Shown: in pieces, positions 21,361-62,453 of the stretch
Position numbering within the stretch: the first letter of the stretch is position 1
How the letters are laid out: each line of letters starts with the position of its first letter
Assembly: GCA_030609135.1 (NCBI GenBank)
Contig: JAUWCU010000003.1
Coordinates: 55-64,054 of the forward strand
DNA length: 64,000 nucleotides
Reading direction: 5' to 3'
DNA from: Candidatus Stahliibacteriota bacterium
GTDB lineage: Bacteria; Hydrothermota; Tepidihabitantia; SM23-42
Program-made: the position numbers and the translations under genes
Notes under the pieces: generated by a model
Database searches by the model: none
Seen by the model: only the letters and a program-made list of their open reading frames with translations
Told to the model about the DNA's origin: nothing

Positions 21361-22773
21361 ATGAAGAACATAGTATATATAGTTCTATCAGTAATTTTGG
21401 TCGTGAATTGTAGTGAAATGGAGACCAAGTGGGAAGTAAAATTCGAACCAGCAGGTCCAGGTAATTATCGAATCAATGGGATTTCTTCTTCAAAGACATA
21501 TACTACTCCAGACAACTACGACCACCGAGTCAAAGGAGTTCCTTGTTCAAGGACACATTCTTATGTTGTTACTGGGGCATTTTGGGAAGATAAGCAGGAA
21601 TCAGTCTGCATTACTGCAAACTATGATGCTAATGGTGAACTCATCTGGCACACAGTCTATGAATCGCATGGCTTGAAATCTTCGAAAGGAAATGCTATCC
21701 GTACCATCACAGGTGAAATTGAAGAGGTTAAACATGACATTTATGTACTAGCACAAACCACTGACTTAAAAGGTATCAACGCCGTAGTCCTGATACAATA
21801 TGACAGCCTTGGTAATATGCAATGGGACAAGGTTATTGAAAAATCCCGAGGAGAGATAACGAGTGTATTGCTGAACGACCACTTGAATAACCTCTATATA
21901 GCGGGCTGGACAAGTAATTCCGCAAATTCTACAGATATCTTCATTGCCAAATATCGACCTTCAGGAGAACTGGCTTGGTTGAACAAATATCATAACCCTC
22001 CTCTTGTTTTTAATACCTTAGTGTTTTGCTCTAGCAAGAATGACCAGTTTCTGGTTGCCGGTCATCTGAGACATAACAAGGATTTCTTTTTCATGAAATA
22101 TGATAGCCTTGGGAAACTTGTGCATCTGACAAAGTGCGAAACTTCTATGCAGGAGATTTCATTGGCAGATGCACAACTTGATGAACATGGTAATGTTTAT
22201 CTTCTGGGCACAACCCACAACAATAAAACTGGCAAGGATTACGTAACTGTAGTCTATGATAAAAACGACAGTCTCCTATTTGAGAAATGCTTTGATGGAC
22301 CAACGCATCATGACGATGTCGCCAATGCCTTGATTGTGGAGGATTCGTACGCGGGGTCATTGTATGTCTATGCTATCGGCAGCAGTGAGAACGAAAATGG
22401 CGTGAGTGAAGTGCTTACCGTGAAATATGATCTAACCGGCAACGAAATATGGACAAAAGCATTCAAGGGGAGAAAAAACGAATCAGCAAAACCCTATCTG
22501 CACGGTCCCAGAATAATCTATTCTCCAACACAGCACGGCGTCAATAATTTCTACATAACCGGATATGTGGGCGATGATGCATTGGTTTTGAAACACAATA
22601 CTAAAGGATTTATTTCCTGGTTTACAAGATACGCAAAGGTTGGCACAGTATGCAAGCCAACCGCATTCAGAAGTTTCTGCGTTGGTATAGAAAGCGTGTC
22701 AGATAAGGGGTCTGATGCATACTTAATAAAATTCGGAAAAACTGAACAGCTCGGCATTATCCGCTGGGATTAA
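21361..22773 (+). CDS. Lipoprotein with beta-propeller-type repeats
   Basis: Lipobox-like MKNIVYIVLSVILVVNC. Recurrent ..KYDxxGxxxW.. strands (IQYDSLGNMQW, AKYRPSGELAW, VKYDLTGNEIW). Confidence 0.5.
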   Translation: MKNIVYIVLSVILVVNCSEMETKWEVKFEPAGPGNYRINGISSSKTYTTPDNYDHRVKGVPCSRTHSYVVTGAFWEDKQESVCITANYDANGELIWHTVYESHGLKSSKGNAIRTITGEIEEVKHDIYVLAQTTDLKGINAVVLIQYDSLGNMQWDKVIEKSRGEITSVLLNDHLNNLYIAGWTSNSANSTDIFIAKYRPSGELAWLNKYHNPPLVFNTLVFCSSKNDQFLVAGHLRHNKDFFFMKYDSLGKLVHLTKCETSMQEISLADAQLDEHGNVYLLGTTHNNKTGKDYVTVVYDKNDSLLFEKCFDGPTHHDDVANALIVEDSYAGSLYVYAIGSSENENGVSEVLTVKYDLTGNEIWTKAFKGRKNESAKPYLHGPRIIYSPTQHGVNNFYITGYVGDDALVLKHNTKGFISWFTRYAKVGTVCKPTAFRSFCVGIESVSDKGSDAYLIKFGKTEQLGIIRWD

Positions 22774-22826: not shown

Positions 22827-24278
22827 CTAATGAATTGTTTCTCGTATCAATTTTGTACTACGGCAGGATTTTCTTTTGATCGTAAATACTGCATGCATTT
22901 GTTTGGCTACAGCCCTTGCTTTTGATCGGTTGTCACAAATGATTTCTATTAAACATTCGCCTTTTTTTACATAATCACCGATTTTTTGGTTGACTTTAAA
23001 TCCACATGATGGGTCGATTTTGTCTTCCTTTTTAAGTCTACCCCCACCCAATTGTACGAGCAACATGCCGATATCAAAAGTATCAATATGATGTATATAC
23101 CCTGTTTGTTGTGCTTTGATTTTAATTCTATTTTTTGCTACTGGTAAACGTGAATAATCATCAATGATACGAACATCACCACCCTGATAATGAATAATCT
23201 CTTTAAATTTATTTAAGGCTTCACGGTTTGCTATCTTTTTCTCAAGGAGGTTTTTCCCGCCTTTAATTTTAGCGAGCTTAAGCATTGCCTTGCCAAGCTC
23301 GAACGTGACTTCCATCAAATCCTTTGGACCACTGCCCTTTAGCGCCTCGATCGTTTCAATAATCTCTAAAGAATTGCCTATATAGTTACCTAATGGATTA
23401 TTCATATCAGTTAGGATGGCGATGACTTTAACTTGGAATCCCCCGTTGCTTGCGGCGTGGGATGAGATATAATACTCCCTCTCCCTTGAGGGAGAGGGTA
23501 GGGGTGAGGGTGAAATTGAAAGTAAGATACCCTGCCCCAAGGGGCAGGGAGCTTCATTCTTTTTGCAACGAGAGTCTCGTTGCACTCCAAAGCGTTTGCC
23601 GATTTGAATCATGGTCCGCGCAAGCTTTTTTGCTTTTTTATAATCAGTCATGAATGCGCCACTGCCAAATTTCACATCGAGCACCAGACCATCGAGATTT
23701 TCAGCAAGTTTCTTAGACATTATGCTTGCGGCAATGAGAGGGATTGAATCAACCGTTGCTGTTACATCGCGCAAGGCATATATTTTTTTGTCAGCGGGCG
23801 CAATTTCTCCGGTTTGTCCAATCATGGCAACGCCAAGTCTTTTTAACTGGCGCTTGAATGCTTTGAGCGTTAGATTAGTACGAAACCCGGGGATTGATTC
23901 TAATTTGTCTAAAGTACCACCTGTATGACCCAGACCGCGACCCGAAATCATGGGCATACAGATACCACATGATGCCATCAAAGGTGCCAGAATAAGTGAT
24001 ACCTTATCACCGACCCCGCCCGTAGAATGCTTGTCGATCTTTGGCTTTTTAATTTCTGAAAGGTTGAGCATCTTTCCAGTGTGCATCATGGCTTGCATCA
24101 AATCAGTGGTTTCGTTAATATCCATACCCTGAAAATATACCGCCATTAAAAAGGCAGCCAGTTGATAGTCAGGGATATTGTGTTTTGTGTATTCAGAAAT
24201 CAGATACTTTATTTCGTGTTCATTTAATTTTTTACCATCACGTTTTTTACGAATAATATCAAGGACGCTAAATTCCAT
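22827..24278 (-). CDS. pdp: pyrimidine-nucleoside (thymidine) phosphorylase carrying a 50-codon in-frame insert
   Basis: KHSTGGVGDKVSL, SGRGLGHTGGTLDKLE, ALRDVTATVDSIPLIAASIMSKK. Start moved to ATG 24278 (MEFSVLDIIRKKRDGKKL..). Confidence 0.9.
   Translation of the reverse strand: MEFSVLDIIRKKRDGKKLNEHEIKYLISEYTKHNIPDYQLAAFLMAVYFQGMDINETTDLMQAMMHTGKMLNLSEIKKPKIDKHSTGGVGDKVSLILAPLMASCGICMPMISGRGLGHTGGTLDKLESIPGFRTNLTLKAFKRQLKRLGVAMIGQTGEIAPADKKIYALRDVTATVDSIPLIAASIMSKKLAENLDGLVLDVKFGSGAFMTDYKKAKKLARTMIQIGKRFGVQRDSRCKKNEAPCPLGQGILLSISPSPLPSPSREREYYISSHAASNGGFQVKVIAILTDMNNPLGNYIGNSLEIIETIEALKGSGPKDLMEVTFELGKAMLKLAKIKGGKNLLEKKIANREALNKFKEIIHYQGGDVRIIDDYSRLPVAKNRIKIKAQQTGYIHHIDTFDIGMLLVQLGGGRLKKEDKIDPSCGFKVNQKIGDYVKKGECLIEIICDNRSKARAVAKQMHAVFTIKRKSCRSTKLIRETIH
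23433..23582. repeat. 150-nt hairpin-repeat insertion inside the pdp reading frame
   Basis: Three hairpins: ccctctcccttgagggagaggg (23477..23498), ccctgccccaaggggcaggg (23530..23549) and tgcaacgagagtctcgttgca (23564..23584). Same module types as the intergenic repeats at 11010 and 25617. Confidence 0.8.
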
Positions 24279-24912
24279 TACACCCCATAGCTTCGCGCAA
24301 TCGCTTGCACGATGCGCATTTACCGCACATTTCTTTTTTGCCAAGATAGCACGAGTAAACATATTGGACAGGCGCCTTGTATTTTAGTCCGAGTTTGTAG
24401 ATTTGTTTCTTTGTATATTCAAGAACAAAGCTCCTCACCTTAACCTTGGTAAGTGTGCTGAACATTAGGGCGTGGTTTATTGCTGCCATGAATTGTGGTC
24501 TGTTGTCCGGGAATTCTTCGGCTTCTTCGCGGTTAAACCCTGTAATAATGAACTCGGCGCCTAAATATTCTGCATAACACGCCGCAATATTTATGAAAAG
24601 ACCATTTCTGTTTGGAATCCAAACGTTCTTTAAGTTGCTAAATTTCCTAATCCTGACATTTTTGGACTGAAGCATAAGGAGTTTCTTGAATTCTTTGAAA
24701 AAAGGTATTTTGATAACCTTGTGTTTGATTTGTAATGCCTTACATATCTTTCTGGATGCGGAAATTTCCATTTTTGCAGCCCGTTGGCCATAATCAAATG
24801 TTAGCGCAAATAGCGGTCTTGTTTTCTTCTTGGCTATTGTCGCGCTGACTAAGGAGTCAAGACCGCCGGATAGGAGGATGATGCTCTTCAATTGGCGAGA
24901 TTGCTTCGTCAT
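24268..24912 (-). CDS. queC: 7-cyano-7-deazaguanine synthase
   Basis: PP-loop LLSGGLDS; C-terminal Zn motif CGKCASC. Start moved to ATG 24912 (MTKQSRQLKSIILLSGGLDS). The upstream 63 codons of the track ORF are repeat DNA. Confidence 0.9.
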   Translation of the reverse strand: MTKQSRQLKSIILLSGGLDSLVSATIAKKKTRPLFALTFDYGQRAAKMEISASRKICKALQIKHKVIKIPFFKEFKKLLMLQSKNVRIRKFSNLKNVWIPNRNGLFINIAACYAEYLGAEFIITGFNREEAEEFPDNRPQFMAAINHALMFSTLTKVKVRSFVLEYTKKQIYKLGLKYKAPVQYVYSCYLGKKEMCGKCASCKRLREAMGCNGI

Positions 24913-25173
24913 TTCATTCCTCGCAATGACAAGGAGAGAGGGGTTCCTCGCAATGACAAGGAGAGATGAGTATTTTCGAATGACGCAAGGAGTAGGGGCT
25001 TTAGCCCCGTCGTATATCGAAGCTTTGAAGATGTGAGGCTCAGAACCTCTGAACTTCTCAACTTCGAGATTGCTTTGGGGCTGCGTGTCTTGCAATGACA
25101 AGAATGGTGGGTATTCTTTGCCCGACCGATGAGTGTGTCATTGCGAGCCTGAACGAAGTTAAGGCGTGGCAAT
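24913..25173. repeat. Repeat cluster between queD and queC
   Basis: Two tandem CCTCGCAATGAC-aaggagaga units, the 63-nt unit at 24992..25054, and GAGATTGC../..GTCATTGCGAGC..GGCAATCT units of the 'gtcattgcga...gaagcaatctc' family. Confidence 0.8.
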
Positions 25174-25533
25174 CTAATCTTCATAATATGTGACGGTATT
25201 GTTACGTCCTTCCCACACCGTGACCGCTTTCATCATATTAATTTTTTTCTTCATTTCATTAAAAACATACATCGCGACATATTCTGCGGTGGCATTACGT
25301 TCTTTGAAATATTTAAGCTCATTCAAGTTTTTGTGGTCGAGTTCAGAAAGTATTTCATCAAGCGCGGTTTTCACACGTCTGAAGTCAATAGCCATCCCTA
25401 TATTATCCAGCTTATCCACTTTTAATATTACTCTTACCTGATAAGTATGGCCGTGTATACCAGCACAATCACCAGGATATCCTTTTACCTGGTGTGCTGC
25501 TGAAAATATTCCTTCAACTGAAAGATCAAACAT
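25174..25533 (-). CDS. queD: 6-carboxy-5,6,7,8-tetrahydropterin synthase
   Basis: 119 aa; HGHTYQVRV zinc-ligand motif; size typical of QueD. Confidence 0.9.
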   Translation of the reverse strand: MFDLSVEGIFSAAHQVKGYPGDCAGIHGHTYQVRVILKVDKLDNIGMAIDFRRVKTALDEILSELDHKNLNELKYFKERNATAEYVAMYVFNEMKKKINMMKAVTVWEGRNNTVTYYED

Positions 25534-25804
25534 TATCTCCCCCTAATATAAAACACCTCCACCCACTGAAACAATACTGAAATGATATTCAGCACAAGGT
25601 TCAGGGCAAGCTTTTTCCTCCCCCTTCCAGGGGGAGGAAGACAGTTTGCAGTCTTTTCCTTGTGGGAAAGCCCTTCTGGGCTTGATATTCGCGGGCAGCC
25701 CGCGCCGCTTCGCAAGGCGAGGCCGGGCAAGCCCGCTCCCACTATGCAAATGCCTAAAACACCTAAACCCCGTTAGATGTGTACTATCTAAATGGGGTAA
25801 ACAC
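25534..25804. repeat. Repeat cluster between the DUF4416-like gene and queD
   Basis: Contains the inverted copy of the 2738 unit (25566..25622), the hairpin cctcccccttccagggggagg (25617..25637) and a relative of the 11097 unit (25663..25745). Overlapping track ORFs here look repeat-encoded. Confidence 0.8.
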
Positions 25805-26347
25805 CTAAACACTAAATTGATTACCCAAACGATTTTTCAGTATCTCCCGGGCTTTTTCAAAGAAATCAAGAACGATTTTTTCCTGGTGATCCGGGTATGT
25901 CCACGCTAAGGGTCTGAATCCCTTATTCTTGTAAATGAGCGTGACTTCTGCGTAAATACCTTTACCTATATAAATACGATGGGAAAAATCCTTAGTTGAA
26001 GCAAGGACTAAATTGCTCAAGGTTATGAGTCCGGGATCAATATTAACCTTCCTTCTTTTGTTTTCATTGACAAAGGAGCTTTCAATTCTATTGGTTCGGT
26101 GTTTCAAATCCGCGAGGACATCAGGATTTACCAAATCATCAAAGACACACCACTGTCGCAAGAGCTTATCGCCCATTTCCTTATTGTAGTATGTTGTGTG
26201 CGTAAACGGGATGATTTCAGATTTCATGGATATATTCCCGAAGTCTTTAGTTAATGCATCTAACACGTTCCTCACTCGAAAATCGTTAACAAAAATCAAT
26301 CCAGTCATAACCAGGACTTTCTGGGTCGGTTTAATCTCTGCCATCAC
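25805..26347 (-). CDS. DUF4416-like protein of unknown function
   Basis: 180 aa. ..VNIDPGLITLSNLVLASTKDFSHRIYIGKGIYAEVTLIY..WTYPD.. matches my memory of the DUF4416 family pattern; not verified by search. Confidence 0.5.
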   Translation of the reverse strand: MMAEIKPTQKVLVMTGLIFVNDFRVRNVLDALTKDFGNISMKSEIIPFTHTTYYNKEMGDKLLRQWCVFDDLVNPDVLADLKHRTNRIESSFVNENKRRKVNIDPGLITLSNLVLASTKDFSHRIYIGKGIYAEVTLIYKNKGFRPLAWTYPDHQEKIVLDFFEKAREILKNRLGNQFSV

Positions 26348-26978
26348 AGACCTTTACGCACACGCCACATATATACTGACCAATACCTCTGATCTTGGAG
26401 AATTCCTTTAATTGTTCCAGGCAGCGAGTTAGGTCAACACCGTCTTTAGAAATAGCCTGACCTGGACATGCCTCAATACATTTGATACATTCACCACAAC
26501 TTTGTTCCACTTTTTGGTCAGGCTCAAATGATAAGTCGGTCAGGAGTGAGCAATACCGAACCCTGGCTCCATATTTTGGATGGATGAGTAAGCCACTTCT
26601 GCCGATAAAGCCAAGACCAGCTGCTTTTGCCAATGATTTATGAGAAATATGGCCTTTTTGCATCTGCCAATCAACTGTCTGAGATGCTGGAATGGCAATT
26701 GCCTTTGCGCCTTTTTCTTCGATAAAACGCACAAGGTGATAGGCAGTTTGGTCTAATATCCAGTTCACCGTCTTGTAATGATGTTTATAAATGAGTGTTG
26801 GCCGGTCTTTTATCGTCTGTAAAACCGATTCTGATAATGGGTAGCCAAAAACAATTGCCCTTGGCAACTCAGCTTTGATTTCTAATAATTCAACATCTTC
26901 TGGCACTTTGCCAAAACCAATGATTTTGACATTATAGTTCAGAAGGAATGAGCAGACTTCTTTTTTGATTGATGTCAT
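26331..26978 (-). CDS. Short QueG-like 4Fe-4S protein (epoxyqueuosine-reductase-related)
   Basis: ..LAKAAGLGFIGRSGLLIHPKYGARV.. resembles the QueG GLGWIGKN block. Followed by CGECIKCIEACP and a second Cys cluster. Only 215 aa, whereas QueG is ~380 aa. Confidence 0.55.
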   Translation of the reverse strand: MTSIKKEVCSFLLNYNVKIIGFGKVPEDVELLEIKAELPRAIVFGYPLSESVLQTIKDRPTLIYKHHYKTVNWILDQTAYHLVRFIEEKGAKAIAIPASQTVDWQMQKGHISHKSLAKAAGLGFIGRSGLLIHPKYGARVRYCSLLTDLSFEPDQKVEQSCGECIKCIEACPGQAISKDGVDLTRCLEQLKEFSKIRGIGQYICGVCVKVCDGRD

Positions 26979-27640
26979 ATAAGGAACGATTCATCAGGTT
27001 TGTCTTTTACTGTCTCGTCATTTGTTTCTTCATCCTCAGTAGTTTCTTGCTCTGCTCCCTCAGTGCTCGGTTCAGGTTCTTGTTCATTGCCAGAAGGTTT
27101 AGTACCAGTGTGTTCCATGGTTGCAATTGCTTCACCAAAATCTTCTTCCCGGGGTAGATCACCCAGTTCTTTTATGCCAAAATATCTTAAGAATTCTTTG
27201 GTCGTGCCATACCTAATTGGTCTACCAGGAACCGGCAGTCTGCCGCATGTTTTAACCAGATTTTTCTGCAGGAGAACGTCTAATATCCAGGTTGAATCAA
27301 CACCCCTTACTTTTTCGATTTCTGGTCTGGTAATAGGTTGGTGGTATGCTATTATTGCAAGGGTTTCCAGTCCAGCTTTTGAAAGCCTGCTCTTGCGGTC
27401 GTGGAGTGCACCGACCCATAGAGCAAATTCTGGTAGGGTGTATATCTGATAGCCTCCAGCGATTTCCTTTATTTCAAAAGCTCGTTGTGACTCGTGATAT
27501 TCTTGATTCAGTTCTTTAACACAGCTGACAATCTCATCTTTTTGTAAATTGGCTATTTCAATGATCTTTTGCAATGTCAAAGGAGCATCAGTTGCTATTA
27601 ATAGTGCTTCTATAGTGCGTTTCATATTAGATCTGTCCAT
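26975..27640 (-). CDS. scpB: segregation and condensation protein B
   Basis: ..EALLIATDAPL..GGYQIYT..LETLAIIAYHQPITRPEIEKVRGVDS..PGRPIRYGTT; acidic C-terminal tail. Confidence 0.85.
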   Translation of the reverse strand: MDRSNMKRTIEALLIATDAPLTLQKIIEIANLQKDEIVSCVKELNQEYHESQRAFEIKEIAGGYQIYTLPEFALWVGALHDRKSRLSKAGLETLAIIAYHQPITRPEIEKVRGVDSTWILDVLLQKNLVKTCGRLPVPGRPIRYGTTKEFLRYFGIKELGDLPREEDFGEAIATMEHTGTKPSGNEQEPEPSTEGAEQETTEDEETNDETVKDKPDESFLI

Positions 27641-28813
27641 TTATTTCTCCTTGGTGGCATATAGCGAAATCAATTTATTTACAATCTTATCCCAATTGAA
27701 CCTATCGTCAATGCTTTTCTTAGCCCTCTTCCCCATTTCTTCACGTAGTTTTTTATCAATTGCCAGTCTTCGTATTGCCCTGGCAAGTGCCGGGACGTCG
27801 CCGGGCGGGACAAGAATGCCGTTCACACCATCTTCAACAACATCGGTAATGCCCCCAGCCTTCGAGGCAATAACTGGTTTATAGCAACTCATCGCCTCGA
27901 TCAAGACTACACCAAGACCTTCAATATCGCCTTGTTTATCATATACTGCCGGCAGCACAAAAAAGCCGCATTTTTCATAGTGCCGCAACTTTTCATCAAC
28001 TGAAATCCAGCCGGTAAAATAAACCCGGGAGCGTAGATCAAGACGGTCAACAAGGTTTTCCAGTTCAGGTCGCTCTGCTCCATCGCCGATGATCACTAAT
28101 TTATGGGGTATTTCATTTCTTAGCTCAGCCATGGCCTGTATCAAATACTTGATCCCTTTGCGCTCCACCAGCCGGCCAACAAAAAGAATTTCATTTTCAT
28201 CGCTGATGCTCGATACTCTTTCCGGAACTGCAGCGCTGAACGGTATGACTTCAATTTCACTTTTTATATAACTTCCTAATTCAGTTCTTGTATGGGTAGA
28301 TATCGCAGTAATCGTATCAGACTTATTCAGCAAAATCGAAAGACACTTTGTCAGCCACTTGAATTTTTTCGTGAACCAGCGTATTTCGCGTCCATAAAAA
28401 GTAGAGAATAAGCGGGTTTTACCGGCAATGCGGGCGAATACTCCAAAAATGATATGAGGAAATGGCCAGTGAACGTGAACGATATCATATTTTTCTCTTT
28501 TGACTAATTGGACAATTGCCCAGGTACCAGCTATCATATAGAAAAATATCAGCAGTAGGTTTAAGGGGTTGCGGCTTACCCGGTCGACAACGGTTTCGTC
28601 ATGCGTGAGTTTTTCCAGATTTTTGAAGAAATAACGGAAACGATGAACTTTAACCCGGTCAAGGATCTGATCACGCAAACCTTTGTATGATGAAGTAAAT
28701 ACTTCGACATCGATTTTTTTGTCACGAAGCCGGAGTATTAGCTCGGTAAGCCAGGGGGTTATTACATCCCCTTCATAACGTTTGTAAGCAGTAGTAACAA
28801 ATAATACCTTCAT
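27641..28813 (-). CDS. glycosyltransferase family 4 (GT-B)
   Basis: 390 aa; ..EGLGVVLIEAMSCYKPVIASKAGG.. (E-x7-E region). Confidence 0.8.
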   Translation of the reverse strand: MKVLFVTTAYKRYEGDVITPWLTELILRLRDKKIDVEVFTSSYKGLRDQILDRVKVHRFRYFFKNLEKLTHDETVVDRVSRNPLNLLLIFFYMIAGTWAIVQLVKREKYDIVHVHWPFPHIIFGVFARIAGKTRLFSTFYGREIRWFTKKFKWLTKCLSILLNKSDTITAISTHTRTELGSYIKSEIEVIPFSAAVPERVSSISDENEILFVGRLVERKGIKYLIQAMAELRNEIPHKLVIIGDGAERPELENLVDRLDLRSRVYFTGWISVDEKLRHYEKCGFFVLPAVYDKQGDIEGLGVVLIEAMSCYKPVIASKAGGITDVVEDGVNGILVPPGDVPALARAIRRLAIDKKLREEMGKRAKKSIDDRFNWDKIVNKLISLYATKEK

Positions 28814-29472
28814 TTCTTAAATTTCCACTTGATCAAGCTCCAGATTGCCTGAATGCCGTCTTTCACACCTATTTTCTTACCTTTTTTGCGTCCGGTGTAG
28901 CTAATCGGTATTTCGACAATTTTCTCTCTTCTTTTCAGGATTTTGCAGGTTATTTCGGGTTCGATCTCAAAATGCGATGAGATTAGGTGTAGATCCCTTA
29001 GGAGATCAGTTTTTATGACCTTATAACATGTCTCCATGTCTGATATATGGCTGCCAAATAAAACATTAGTCAAAAAGGTTAAGAACCGATTCGCAAAATA
29101 ACTTGATTTTAAGAAGCTACCTTTTCCTAAAATTCTTGAACCATACACAACATTTGTTCTTTTTTCTTTAATAGGTTTAATCAGCTGTGGATACTGTTTA
29201 GGTGAATACTCTAAATCAGCATCCTGAATAATAACTATATCTCCAGAGGCAATTTGCAAACCACTTCGGATGGCGGCTCCTTTTCCTCTGTTTTTCTCGT
29301 GAAATATTGTTTTTATTCCTTTTCGCCTTTTCAAAAAATCTCTGGTGCCGTCCACTGAAAAATCATCAACTACGACAATTTCGCGTGCTAAACCTACTTT
29401 TTCGACATCGGTTATTATCGTCTCTATATCGTTCTTCTCATTATATACAGGGATTATCACCGTAACCTCCAT
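28810..29472 (-). CDS. glycosyltransferase family 2 (polyprenol-phosphate sugar transferase-like)
   Basis: VIIPVYNE, VVDDFSVDGT, IQDADLEY. Confidence 0.8.
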   Translation of the reverse strand: MEVTVIIPVYNEKNDIETIITDVEKVGLAREIVVVDDFSVDGTRDFLKRRKGIKTIFHEKNRGKGAAIRSGLQIASGDIVIIQDADLEYSPKQYPQLIKPIKEKRTNVVYGSRILGKGSFLKSSYFANRFLTFLTNVLFGSHISDMETCYKVIKTDLLRDLHLISSHFEIEPEITCKILKRREKIVEIPISYTGRKKGKKIGVKDGIQAIWSLIKWKFKK

Positions 29473-29478
29473 GCCCAG

Positions 29479-29506
29479 ATTATATGGAAAAATCCCTCAA
29501 TGTAAA
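29479..29506 (-). promoter_or_regulatory. promoter of the GT2-GT4-scpB-queG-like-DUF4416 operon; leaderless-type spacing
   Basis: Minus strand reads TTTACA-N16-TATAAT, then 6 nt (ctgggc) before ATG 29472. Confidence 0.55.
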
Positions 29507-61618: not shown

Positions 61619-62038
61619 TTAGGTAGATTCTAAGTAATTTACAATTGCTTGGGCAAAGCTATTGAAATCAGCTAATTGATTCTGTAGGATATCATAAACC
61701 TGATTGGGATCAGTATAAAGATAATTATGCACTAAAATGTTTCTAAAACTAACCATACCTTTAATTTTCTTAATCAATTCTTCTGGCAACACGCCATTTT
61801 TGCCTAAAACAACAAAGATATTTTCCTGTTCATCTGGCACTAATAGATTTTGTCCAGCAATAATGTAATTAGCAATGTCAATACAGGTTTGCATAGCTAC
61901 CTGAAAATTTCTTTCAGCAATATCCTGGTAATCTTGATTATTGGTATATTCATCCTTTGATATTCGTTGAATTCTTTTCAGCCTTGATACGGCATGATCG
62001 AGTTTTTTTAATCGCACCTCAATAACCTTTTTATCCAA
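61619..62038 (-). CDS. hepT: HepT-type (DUF86) ribonuclease toxin
   Basis: 139 aa; Rx4HxY motif FRNILVHNY near the C-terminus; overlaps the upstream MNT gene by 8 nt. Confidence 0.85.
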   Translation of the reverse strand: MDKKVIEVRLKKLDHAVSRLKRIQRISKDEYTNNQDYQDIAERNFQVAMQTCIDIANYIIAGQNLLVPDEQENIFVVLGKNGVLPEELIKKIKGMVSFRNILVHNYLYTDPNQVYDILQNQLADFNSFAQAIVNYLEST

Positions 62039-62453
62039 TGCCTACCTCTTTGATTTTTTTCTTTAAATACCTTGAATGAAACTCAAAATATTTCTTATAA
62101 TCGTAATACAATCCCATTGAATATGCTTGGAATAGCGCCCTTTTGTTTTCATCTTTCTCATAAATTAATTGTCCCTTTTCAAAAACCTGGGCCCTTAAAA
62201 GTAGATTTGCAAAGTTCAAAATTACAAGGTCAACTTTTCCTTTTAATAGCTCCATTAAATCTGTACTAAGATTCATTCGATAGAACAGTGGATTCTCTAT
62301 TTTCTTTTCATTAATCAATAGCGCGATATCAATGTCACTATCTTTTCTTTGTTTCTTTTCAACTACTGAACCAAATAAATAAGCCGAATAAATTTCAGGT
62401 TTTGTAGTAAAATATTTCCGGAGTTTTTCAGTTATTTCCAGTTGGAATTTCAT
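62031..62453 (-). CDS. mntA: MNT-type nucleotidyltransferase antitoxin
   Basis: LFGSVVEKKQRKDSDIDIALL (GS-x10-DxD). Confidence 0.85.
   Translation of the reverse strand: MKFQLEITEKLRKYFTTKPEIYSAYLFGSVVEKKQRKDSDIDIALLINEKKIENPLFYRMNLSTDLMELLKGKVDLVILNFANLLLRAQVFEKGQLIYEKDENKRALFQAYSMGLYYDYKKYFEFHSRYLKKKIKEVGIG

Follow-up and report, generated by a model that had tools for sequence, protein, structure and literature searches.

The epoxyqueuosine reductase QueG is a multidomain enzyme, which in Bacillus subtilis consists of three parts: residues 1-189 form a cobalamin (Cbl)-binding domain that includes a Cbl-insert at 77-104, residues 190-256 form a ferredoxin (Fd) domain that includes an Fd-insert at 215-239, and residues 257-385 form a HEAT-like domain that binds the tRNA anticodon stem-loop, with Asp134, His106, and Arg141 as catalytic or cofactor residues (PMC5175355). 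QueG of Streptococcus thermophilus contains the strictly conserved motif D100-Y101-H102 and, as the counterpart of the catalytic Asp134, D130 (PMC4646009). A 64,000-nucleotide (nt) stretch of Candidatus Stahliibacteriota bacterium DNA (GenBank assembly GCA_030609135.1, contig JAUWCU010000003.1, positions 55 to 64,054 of the forward strand; hereafter the window) encodes a QueG-like protein of only 215 amino acids (aa), named sQueG here, whose gene overlaps a gene of the DUF4416 family; the two genes form a conserved module. Homologues of the two proteins place the source in candidate division WOR-3. A known small epoxyqueuosine reductase is the non-orthologous QueH (DUF208), a single-domain protein without a HEAT domain that reduces epoxyqueuosine (oQ) on tRNA, but its fold is unrelated to that of sQueG and it is not cobalamin-dependent. 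In the literature searched, DUF4416 is not mentioned, PF14385 is named once, in an unrelated paper, and nothing joins WOR-3 with queuosine (Q) or describes a short QueG.

sQueG is a core-only member of the QueG/reductive dehalogenase class

sQueG belongs to a distinct core-only subfamily within the QueG/reductive dehalogenase (RDH) class of cobalamin and [4Fe-4S] reductases. The closest solved homologues in a sequence search of the Protein Data Bank (PDB) are QueG structures (5d6s, E 1e-17; 5d08, E 5e-16), followed by PceA-type and NpRdhA dehalogenases, and the matched QueG chains have 399 and 437 residues, which agrees with an earlier note on this DNA that had described the protein as QueG-like and half-size. 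All PDB matches are restricted to sQueG residues from ~105 onward, similarity to QueG is undetectable by sequence in the first 108 residues, and an hhalign comparison with Escherichia coli QueG (an approximate sequence) aligns residues 109-213 only. The match to the curated QueG model TIGR00276 is similarly limited to residues 102-190 (model positions 122-211 of 337), and the sole Pfam match is a sub-threshold one to Fer4_16. Within the matched region, the block GLGFIGRSGLLI is retained at residues 121-132 and the cysteine pattern is of the QueG/RDH type (C161-x2-C164-x2-C167-x3-C171, C186, C204-x2-C207-x3-C211); the retention of this block and of two Cys clusters had been noted earlier, and in an alignment of the family the eight cysteines of the two [4Fe-4S] clusters are invariant in 88 of 88 members, together with Y64, Y68, N72, D76, S99, H113, and R141. 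The N-terminus, as read from the sequence (MTSIKKEVCSF...), has no RR motif and hence no twin-arginine (TAT) signal. Proteins of 215-230 aa from this family are labeled "epoxyqueuosine reductase" by the Joint Genome Institute (JGI) pipeline and in some GenBank records, a label that rests on partial homology only, without the backing of a curated model, and is best treated as unverified.

The AlphaFold2 (AF2) model of sQueG has a predicted local distance difference test score (pLDDT) of 94.9, and Foldseek superposes it over its whole length on PceA and NpRdhA (query-normalized TM-score 0.72-0.78) and on QueG (0.61-0.66), with MMACHC as a weaker match. Because this high-confidence model superposes full-length on all three enzymes, the cobalamin-binding core appears to be kept in sQueG. 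The chain ends four residues past the last cluster Cys and has no C-terminal HEAT-like domain, so that the loss of part of the cobalamin/HEAT architecture, which had been suspected from the short length, holds for the HEAT part but not for the cobalamin core, which appears to be retained. Subtraction of the HEAT domain and both inserts from the ~385 residues of QueG leaves ~200 residues, compared with 215 in sQueG, and the listed family members range from ~164 to 274 aa, mostly 212-240.

The DUF4416 protein

The family assignment of the second protein, proposed earlier from the sequence, is secure: the PF14385 score is 194.5 bits (cut-off 27, E 1.5e-57), and residues 11-168 cover model positions 3-160 of 162. 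The DUF4416 family comprises 1,867 clusters at 50% identity, and its invariant residues (Y54, K82, E89, R99, N102, D104, K119, and R124) form a pattern that resembles a catalytic or ligand-binding site more than an inert scaffold. A PDB profile search found no solved homologue by sequence (nothing at E<=10). The AF2 model (pLDDT 85.2) predicts a ferredoxin-like alpha/beta sandwich, which differs from HPPK/FolK in its additional beta-hairpins and in the long helix at its C-terminus; HPPK structures are the top fold matches, but weak ones (TM-scores 0.33-0.43), with ACT, PII, and ribosomal protein S6 nearly equal. An identity as HPPK/FolK was rejected by sequence, with DUF4416 as the sole Pfam match, no PDB profile match, and an hhalign probability of 0.3% against an approximate E. 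coli FolK query. Isoelectric points are uninformative on RNA binding (median ~8.6 for sQueG; 4.8 to 10.1 for DUF4416).

Fusions of DUF4416 to other domains are listed for P0253, P0345, and P0352, namely to an M48 peptidase whose N-terminal helices are of the CAAX-protease kind (540 aa), the anhydro-MurNAc kinase AnmK (580 aa), and a ubiquitin-like Mut7-C domain (Ub-Mut7C, 310 aa); these may be real or gene-calling artefacts. In the Hydrothermae-like loci L040 (10577-12004) and L075 (10570-11663), genes for a Roadblock/LC7 (MglB-like) protein and a small Ras/Arf-like GTPase follow DUF4416, and such a neighboring GTPase gene might be the source of an old UniRef label, "GTP-binding protein," on some DUF4416 entries.

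Conservation of the sQueG–DUF4416 pair

Hundreds of homologues exist for both sQueG and DUF4416, so both genes are real far beyond chance, and the overlapping minus-strand pair that the earlier note had read from the open reading frames (ORFs) is upheld. The length of the overlap depends on the DUF4416 start: an exact-sequence look-up, with start codons checked, showed that the public gene call is the 179-aa form from ATG, which gives 14 nt, and the alternative GTG at 26347 (25805..26347, 180 aa) gives the 17 nt described before. This overlap suggests translational coupling of the two genes.

The pairing was surveyed from both sides. Among 80 metagenome sQueG loci sampled, the next gene after sQueG is DUF4416 in 48, mostly with a -14 or -17 nt junction, and these paired loci share a WOR-3-type operon with scpB at position -1 in 37, queD at +2 in 34, queC at +3 in 32, and pdp in 24. 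Seven more distant sQueG loci were examined with precomputed Pfam labels, and PF14385 lies directly downstream in four of them, each with a different neighborhood. From the other side, a DUF4416 scan of one genome per species with a 14-sequence alignment confirmed at least 597 loci, of which 80 were kept (Desulfobacterota, KSB1, Latescibacterota, Calditrichota, Omnitrophota, Planctomycetota, Elusimicrobiota, Spirochaetota, Zixibacteria, and others). Eleven of these are paired, in Zixibacteria, Hydrothermae-like, Edwardsbacteria-like, and other lineages; sQueG is directly upstream of DUF4416 on the same strand in 11/11, and no copy of scpB, the glycosyltransferase genes, queD, queC, or pdp lies within 10 kb. 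The scpB gene can serve as a control for adjacency due to synteny only, because it occupies position -1 in 39 of the sampled metagenome loci (37 with DUF4416 and 2 without) and in 0 of the 11 non-WOR-3 paired loci. The sQueG–DUF4416 adjacency spans at least five deep lineages whose flanks differ, and since the pair persists where all other neighbors change, it is held by more than drift; tight pairing conserved well beyond this genome favors a functional link. The paired DUF4416 sequences are spread over at least five groups of a crude neighbor-joining tree, which does not resolve their monophyly.

Genes acting on tRNA recur independently as neighbors outside the WOR-3 operon. For example, tgt (PF01702, E 4e-146) is divergent from the pair and 43 nt upstream of it in L075, and in the related Hydrothermae-like locus L040 a Tgt homologue with 75% identity (BLAST) lies 7 kb upstream. 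Among loci without DUF4416, sQueG in L163 is followed directly by mnmG and has miaA, hfq, and scpB on its other side, and in L161 a radical SAM gene of the MiaB-like kind adjoins it. In L128 and L131, sQueG is near a gene recognized, by eye only, as TsaB-like.

Several other genes were observed next to DUF4416 or the pair. An uncharacterized radical SAM protein of 311-318 aa recurs (L009:1409-2365, L074:7059-7788, L075:7243-8178, and L040:192-1124; elsewhere L128:5394-6347, L131:5388-6344, and L039:6112-7278), which matches Pfam Radical_SAM only and no NCBIfam family at threshold. Its gene immediately follows DUF4416 in one locus of Omnitrophota and one of Planctomycetia, adjoins tgt by the sQueG–DUF4416 pair in the Hydrothermae-like loci, and in three metagenome loci stands next to a TsaB-like gene, ~3.5 kb upstream of sQueG. 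Some paired loci have a third gene, overlapping DUF4416 at its 3' end and matching nothing in Pfam, whose product has 281-295 aa in one lineage (L166:6260-7147, L167:6246-7091) and 154-166 aa in another (L024:9914-10378, L046:3031-3531); it may encode a lineage-specific third component.

Proposed function of the pair and alternative explanations

The favored reading, to which a probability of roughly 0.4 is given, is that sQueG acts as a minimal epoxyqueuosine reductase and that DUF4416 is its accessory subunit. A tRNA-acting QueG-like function is suggested by the recurrent tRNA-modification neighbors, the QueG-type cofactor scaffold, and the position of QueG as the nearest characterized relative, and epoxyqueuosine reduction is the most economical assignment for sQueG; we infer cobalamin binding, the oQ substrate, and a contact between sQueG and DUF4416. 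In this mechanism, a predicted base-off cobalamin-binding domain would be followed by a ferredoxin domain whose two [4Fe-4S] clusters pass low-potential electrons to the cobalt, and the enzyme would turn oQ34 into Q34 on tRNA-Asp, -Asn, -His, and -Tyr. Canonical QueG holds the anticodon stem-loop and closes its active site by means of the HEAT-like domain and the Cbl- and Fd-inserts; sQueG would have lost all three, and DUF4416, apparently co-translated with sQueG, is the obvious candidate to make up for them. Owing to the overlapping frame, DUF4416 would probably be made in amounts matching sQueG, and it may act in substrate binding or active-site capping.

Several observations weigh against this reading, and those that concern the pairing would suit a different one, in which sQueG is a stand-alone epoxyqueuosine reductase and DUF4416 an unrelated housekeeping gene kept downstream by synteny only, an explanation that we consider rather unlikely. 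sQueG can exist without an adjacent DUF4416: 32 of the 80 metagenome loci (~40%) have none within 10 kb, with ATP-synthase, UbiA-like, GalT-like, and efflux genes as neighbors (by eye from translations), and 3/7 distant loci have none within reach. Conversely, sQueG is found in 11 of the 72 DUF4416 loci with upstream room (~15%), and the remaining ~85% stand in housekeeping clusters. In 31/75 loci (41%), mostly from Desulfobacterota, yicC (endoribonuclease, TIGR00255) is directly downstream of DUF4416, followed by remA, gmk and rpoZ (by eye), and a SpoU-family methylase gene; these loci lie among L005-L080 (e.g., L018:10515-11384), and the yicC and sQueG contexts are mutually exclusive in the sampled loci. 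Because most DUF4416 genes occur without sQueG, DUF4416 must have a wider role that does not need it. No sQueG–DUF4416 fusion is found among the ~390 proteins listed, and the overlap alone proves nothing, as stop/start overlaps are common in this compact operon and also join unrelated genes (scpB/sQueG and queC/pdp). QueH likewise illustrates that a small oQ reductase can dispense with a HEAT domain. Synteny alone nevertheless leaves unexplained an adjacency that persists in at least five deep lineages where every other neighbor differs, with constant orientation, sQueG immediately upstream, and the genes usually overlapping. Of the partnership with DUF4416 first proposed for queuosine metabolism, the conserved pairing is borne out, although the queuosine role comes from context only and the unpaired sQueG loci count against a partnership; a general association of DUF4416 with queuosine genes, which the earlier note had put forward for checking by co-occurrence, was not found, since the 80 DUF4416 loci contain queC in none, queD in one (distant), and tgt in three, and DUF4416 has no general link to these genes.

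The remaining adverse observations concern the chemistry of sQueG. It has no match to PF08331 (DUF1730) at E<=0.01. Its score against TIGR00276 is 74.4 bits, below the cut-off of 200, and it is structurally at least as near to the dehalogenases as to QueG, with MMACHC also matched, which could point to a class-III cobalamin/Fe-S reductase with a non-queuosine substrate, either cytoplasmic dehalogenase-like or cobalamin-processing, beside which the que genes would be coincidental. The mixed WOR-3 operon, in which scpB, pdp, and two genes for glycosyltransferases occur as well, the neighbors of the DUF4416-less subgroup, and the position of P0504 in a metabolic cluster fit this explanation, but we regard it as improbable: the score against the dehalogenase model TIGR02486 is even lower (53 bits, cut-off 160), a twin-arginine signal is lacking, no RdhB-like anchor gene is seen among the sQueG neighbors (scpB and DUF4416 flank sQueG), and chance poorly explains repeated, independent adjacency to tRNA-modification genes. 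The active site is a further difficulty for epoxyqueuosine reduction, as the D-Y-H tripeptide is absent from 88/88 family members and the catalytic-Asp position corresponds in HMMER to residue 107, which varies (Q/H/R/M/N) and is never D. An invariant H67-Y68-[K/R]69 stands in the family and may hold the class-conserved Tyr, the alignment being ambiguous there, and MAFFT alignment with P0506, a canonical-type QueG carrying PF08331 and PF13484, places V102-D103 opposite the QueG "VDT" through a 4-residue gap, with D103 conserved in 78/88 members. The missing D-Y-H motif would also fit if the pair instead acted on free pterin or 7-deazaguanine intermediates, for example by replacing QueE (6-carboxytetrahydropterin, CPH4, to 7-carboxy-7-deazaguanine, CDG) or QueF (preQ0 to preQ1). 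The two proteins would then be a new cobalamin/Fe-S system with a chemistry other than epoxyqueuosine reduction, and DUF4416 could be a previously unrecognized HPPK-like enzyme, binding a small molecule or dependent on a nucleotide, that in other phyla also serves further RNA- or nucleotide-related partners such as YicC or the uncharacterized radical SAM enzyme. The packed or overlapping order sQueG-DUF4416-queD-queC in WOR-3, which recalls queCDEF, an operon of four genes in B. subtilis, the absence of queE and queF within 10 kb of the WOR-3 loci, and the enzyme-like acidic, basic, and aromatic invariant residues of DUF4416 are in keeping with such a role. It is still the least probable of the explanations considered, as the pair never adjoins queD or queC outside WOR-3, the other sQueG neighbors act on tRNA (tgt, mnmG, miaA, and MiaB-like), the resemblance of DUF4416 to HPPK is weak and without sequence support, and no class-III cobalamin enzyme is known for the QueE or QueF reaction.

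Organization of the gene cluster

The pair is located within eight co-directional minus-strand genes (29472 to 22827) in the order GT2–GT4–scpB–sQueG–DUF4416–queD–queC–pdp, as determined from the ORF list, Pfam, and NCBIfam (Table 1). The identities and common strand of queD, queC, and pdp downstream of the pair, as well as the repeats between them, had been proposed earlier and were confirmed.

Table 1 Coordinates of the cluster genes and their junctions in the window
Feature	Position	Strand	Evidence or remark
GT2 glycosyltransferase gene	28810..29472	-	Pfam; head of the co-directional cluster
GT4 glycosyltransferase gene	27641..28813	-	Pfam
scpB	26975..27640	-	PF04079, E 2.2e-53; immediately upstream of sQueG, same operon
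sQueG, 215 aa	26331..26978	-	ORF from ATG; predicted cobalamin core and two-[4Fe-4S] ferredoxin domain
DUF4416 gene	25805..26344	-	PF14385; 179 aa from ATG 26344
Overlap of sQueG 3' end and DUF4416 5' end, 14 nt (ATGGCAGAGATTAA)	26331..26344	-	Sequence
DUF4416–queD spacer, 271 nt, GC-rich	25534..25804		Direct repeats D3-D5
queD (6-carboxytetrahydropterin synthase)	25174..25533	-	PF01242, E 1.4e-34
queD–queC spacer, 261 nt	24913..25173		Repeat families D1 and D2, 27-nt tandem repeats
queC (7-cyano-7-deazaguanine synthase)	24268..24912	-	TIGR00364, 188 bits (cut-off 150)
pdp (pyrimidine-nucleoside phosphorylase)	22827..24278	-	TIGR02644, 552 bits, two stretches

The sQueG ATG shares bases with the scpB stop codon (ATGA), and the pdp start (ATG 24278) overlaps the queC stop by 11 nt. 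The queD product scores 85.8 bits against TIGR03367, slightly below the cut-off of 89.25. The start of queC is probably the ATG at 24912, because an ORF extended to 25101 runs through repeat DNA and has its QueC domain from residue 72 onward. In the queD–queC spacer, a 27-nt tandem pair is found at 24917-24970. Both spacers are local repeat expansions, since the genes are closely spaced in orthologous loci (median 23.5 nt for DUF4416–queD and -11 nt for queD–queC). No riboswitch or other RNA was found between the cluster genes by Rfam, and the DUF4416–queD spacer matches no Rfam family and lacks a terminator-like site on the minus strand. The top sigma-70-like site in a promoter scan lies at 29506..29479 (11/12 matches), which is weak evidence for a promoter. 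The window contains no tgt, queA, queE, queF, queH, or folE elsewhere, and a link with the Dpd system or with anti-phage defence was rejected, as nothing beyond the generic QueC match was found for it.

Other observations were made around the cluster. IS200/RAYT-like transposase genes, identified by eye, are present in some orthologous loci. The pdp gene carries a unique in-frame insert of 153 nt (51 aa) at 23433..23585, which is absent from 8 orthologues and contains two GC-rich hairpins (23549-23530 and 23498-23477); it looks like a repetitive extragenic palindromic (REP)- or miniature inverted-repeat transposable element (MITE)-like element, inserted with the reading frame intact. A gene for a 470-aa protein without a Pfam match (21361..22773, plus strand) adjoins pdp on the opposite strand, and its position beside pdp is kept in at least seven orthologous WOR-3 loci (cluster 13). 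At 61619..62453 on the minus strand, a HepT-like RNase gene overlaps a nucleotidyltransferase (MNT-type) gene in an arrangement resembling a toxin-antitoxin module.

Significance and comparison with known systems

If sQueG makes queuosine, it would define how small the catalytic core can be in an RNA-modifying enzyme that depends on cobalamin, and tRNA recognition could either pass to a separate subunit or be dispensed with. The epoxyqueuosine-reductase step would also be filled in the uncultured WOR-3, TA06, Zixibacteria, Hydrothermae-like, and Edwardsbacteria-like lineages. The pairing offers the first testable functional hook for DUF4416, and the combination of a pared-down QueG-like reductase and its conserved DUF4416 neighbor is a testable lead, not a proven case, for a two-part version of QueG.

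Compared with QueG (B. subtilis 5D08/5D0B and S. thermophilus 5D6S; family TIGR00276/COG1600), sQueG shares its best sequence match over residues 105-211, the predicted cobalamin-domain fold, and an adjacency to queuosine and tRNA-modification genes. It differs from QueG in having no HEAT-like domain or Cbl-insert and a much shorter Fd-insert (as defined in PMC5175355), in the absence of the D-Y-H motif (PMC4646009), and in its usual pairing with DUF4416. The reductive dehalogenases PceA (4UQU) and NpRdhA (4RAS) have the same class-III cobalamin and two-[4Fe-4S] architecture and give the top TM-scores, but sQueG is less than half their size and has neither a TAT signal nor an anchor gene, and its genomic context is that of tRNA modification rather than organohalide respiration.

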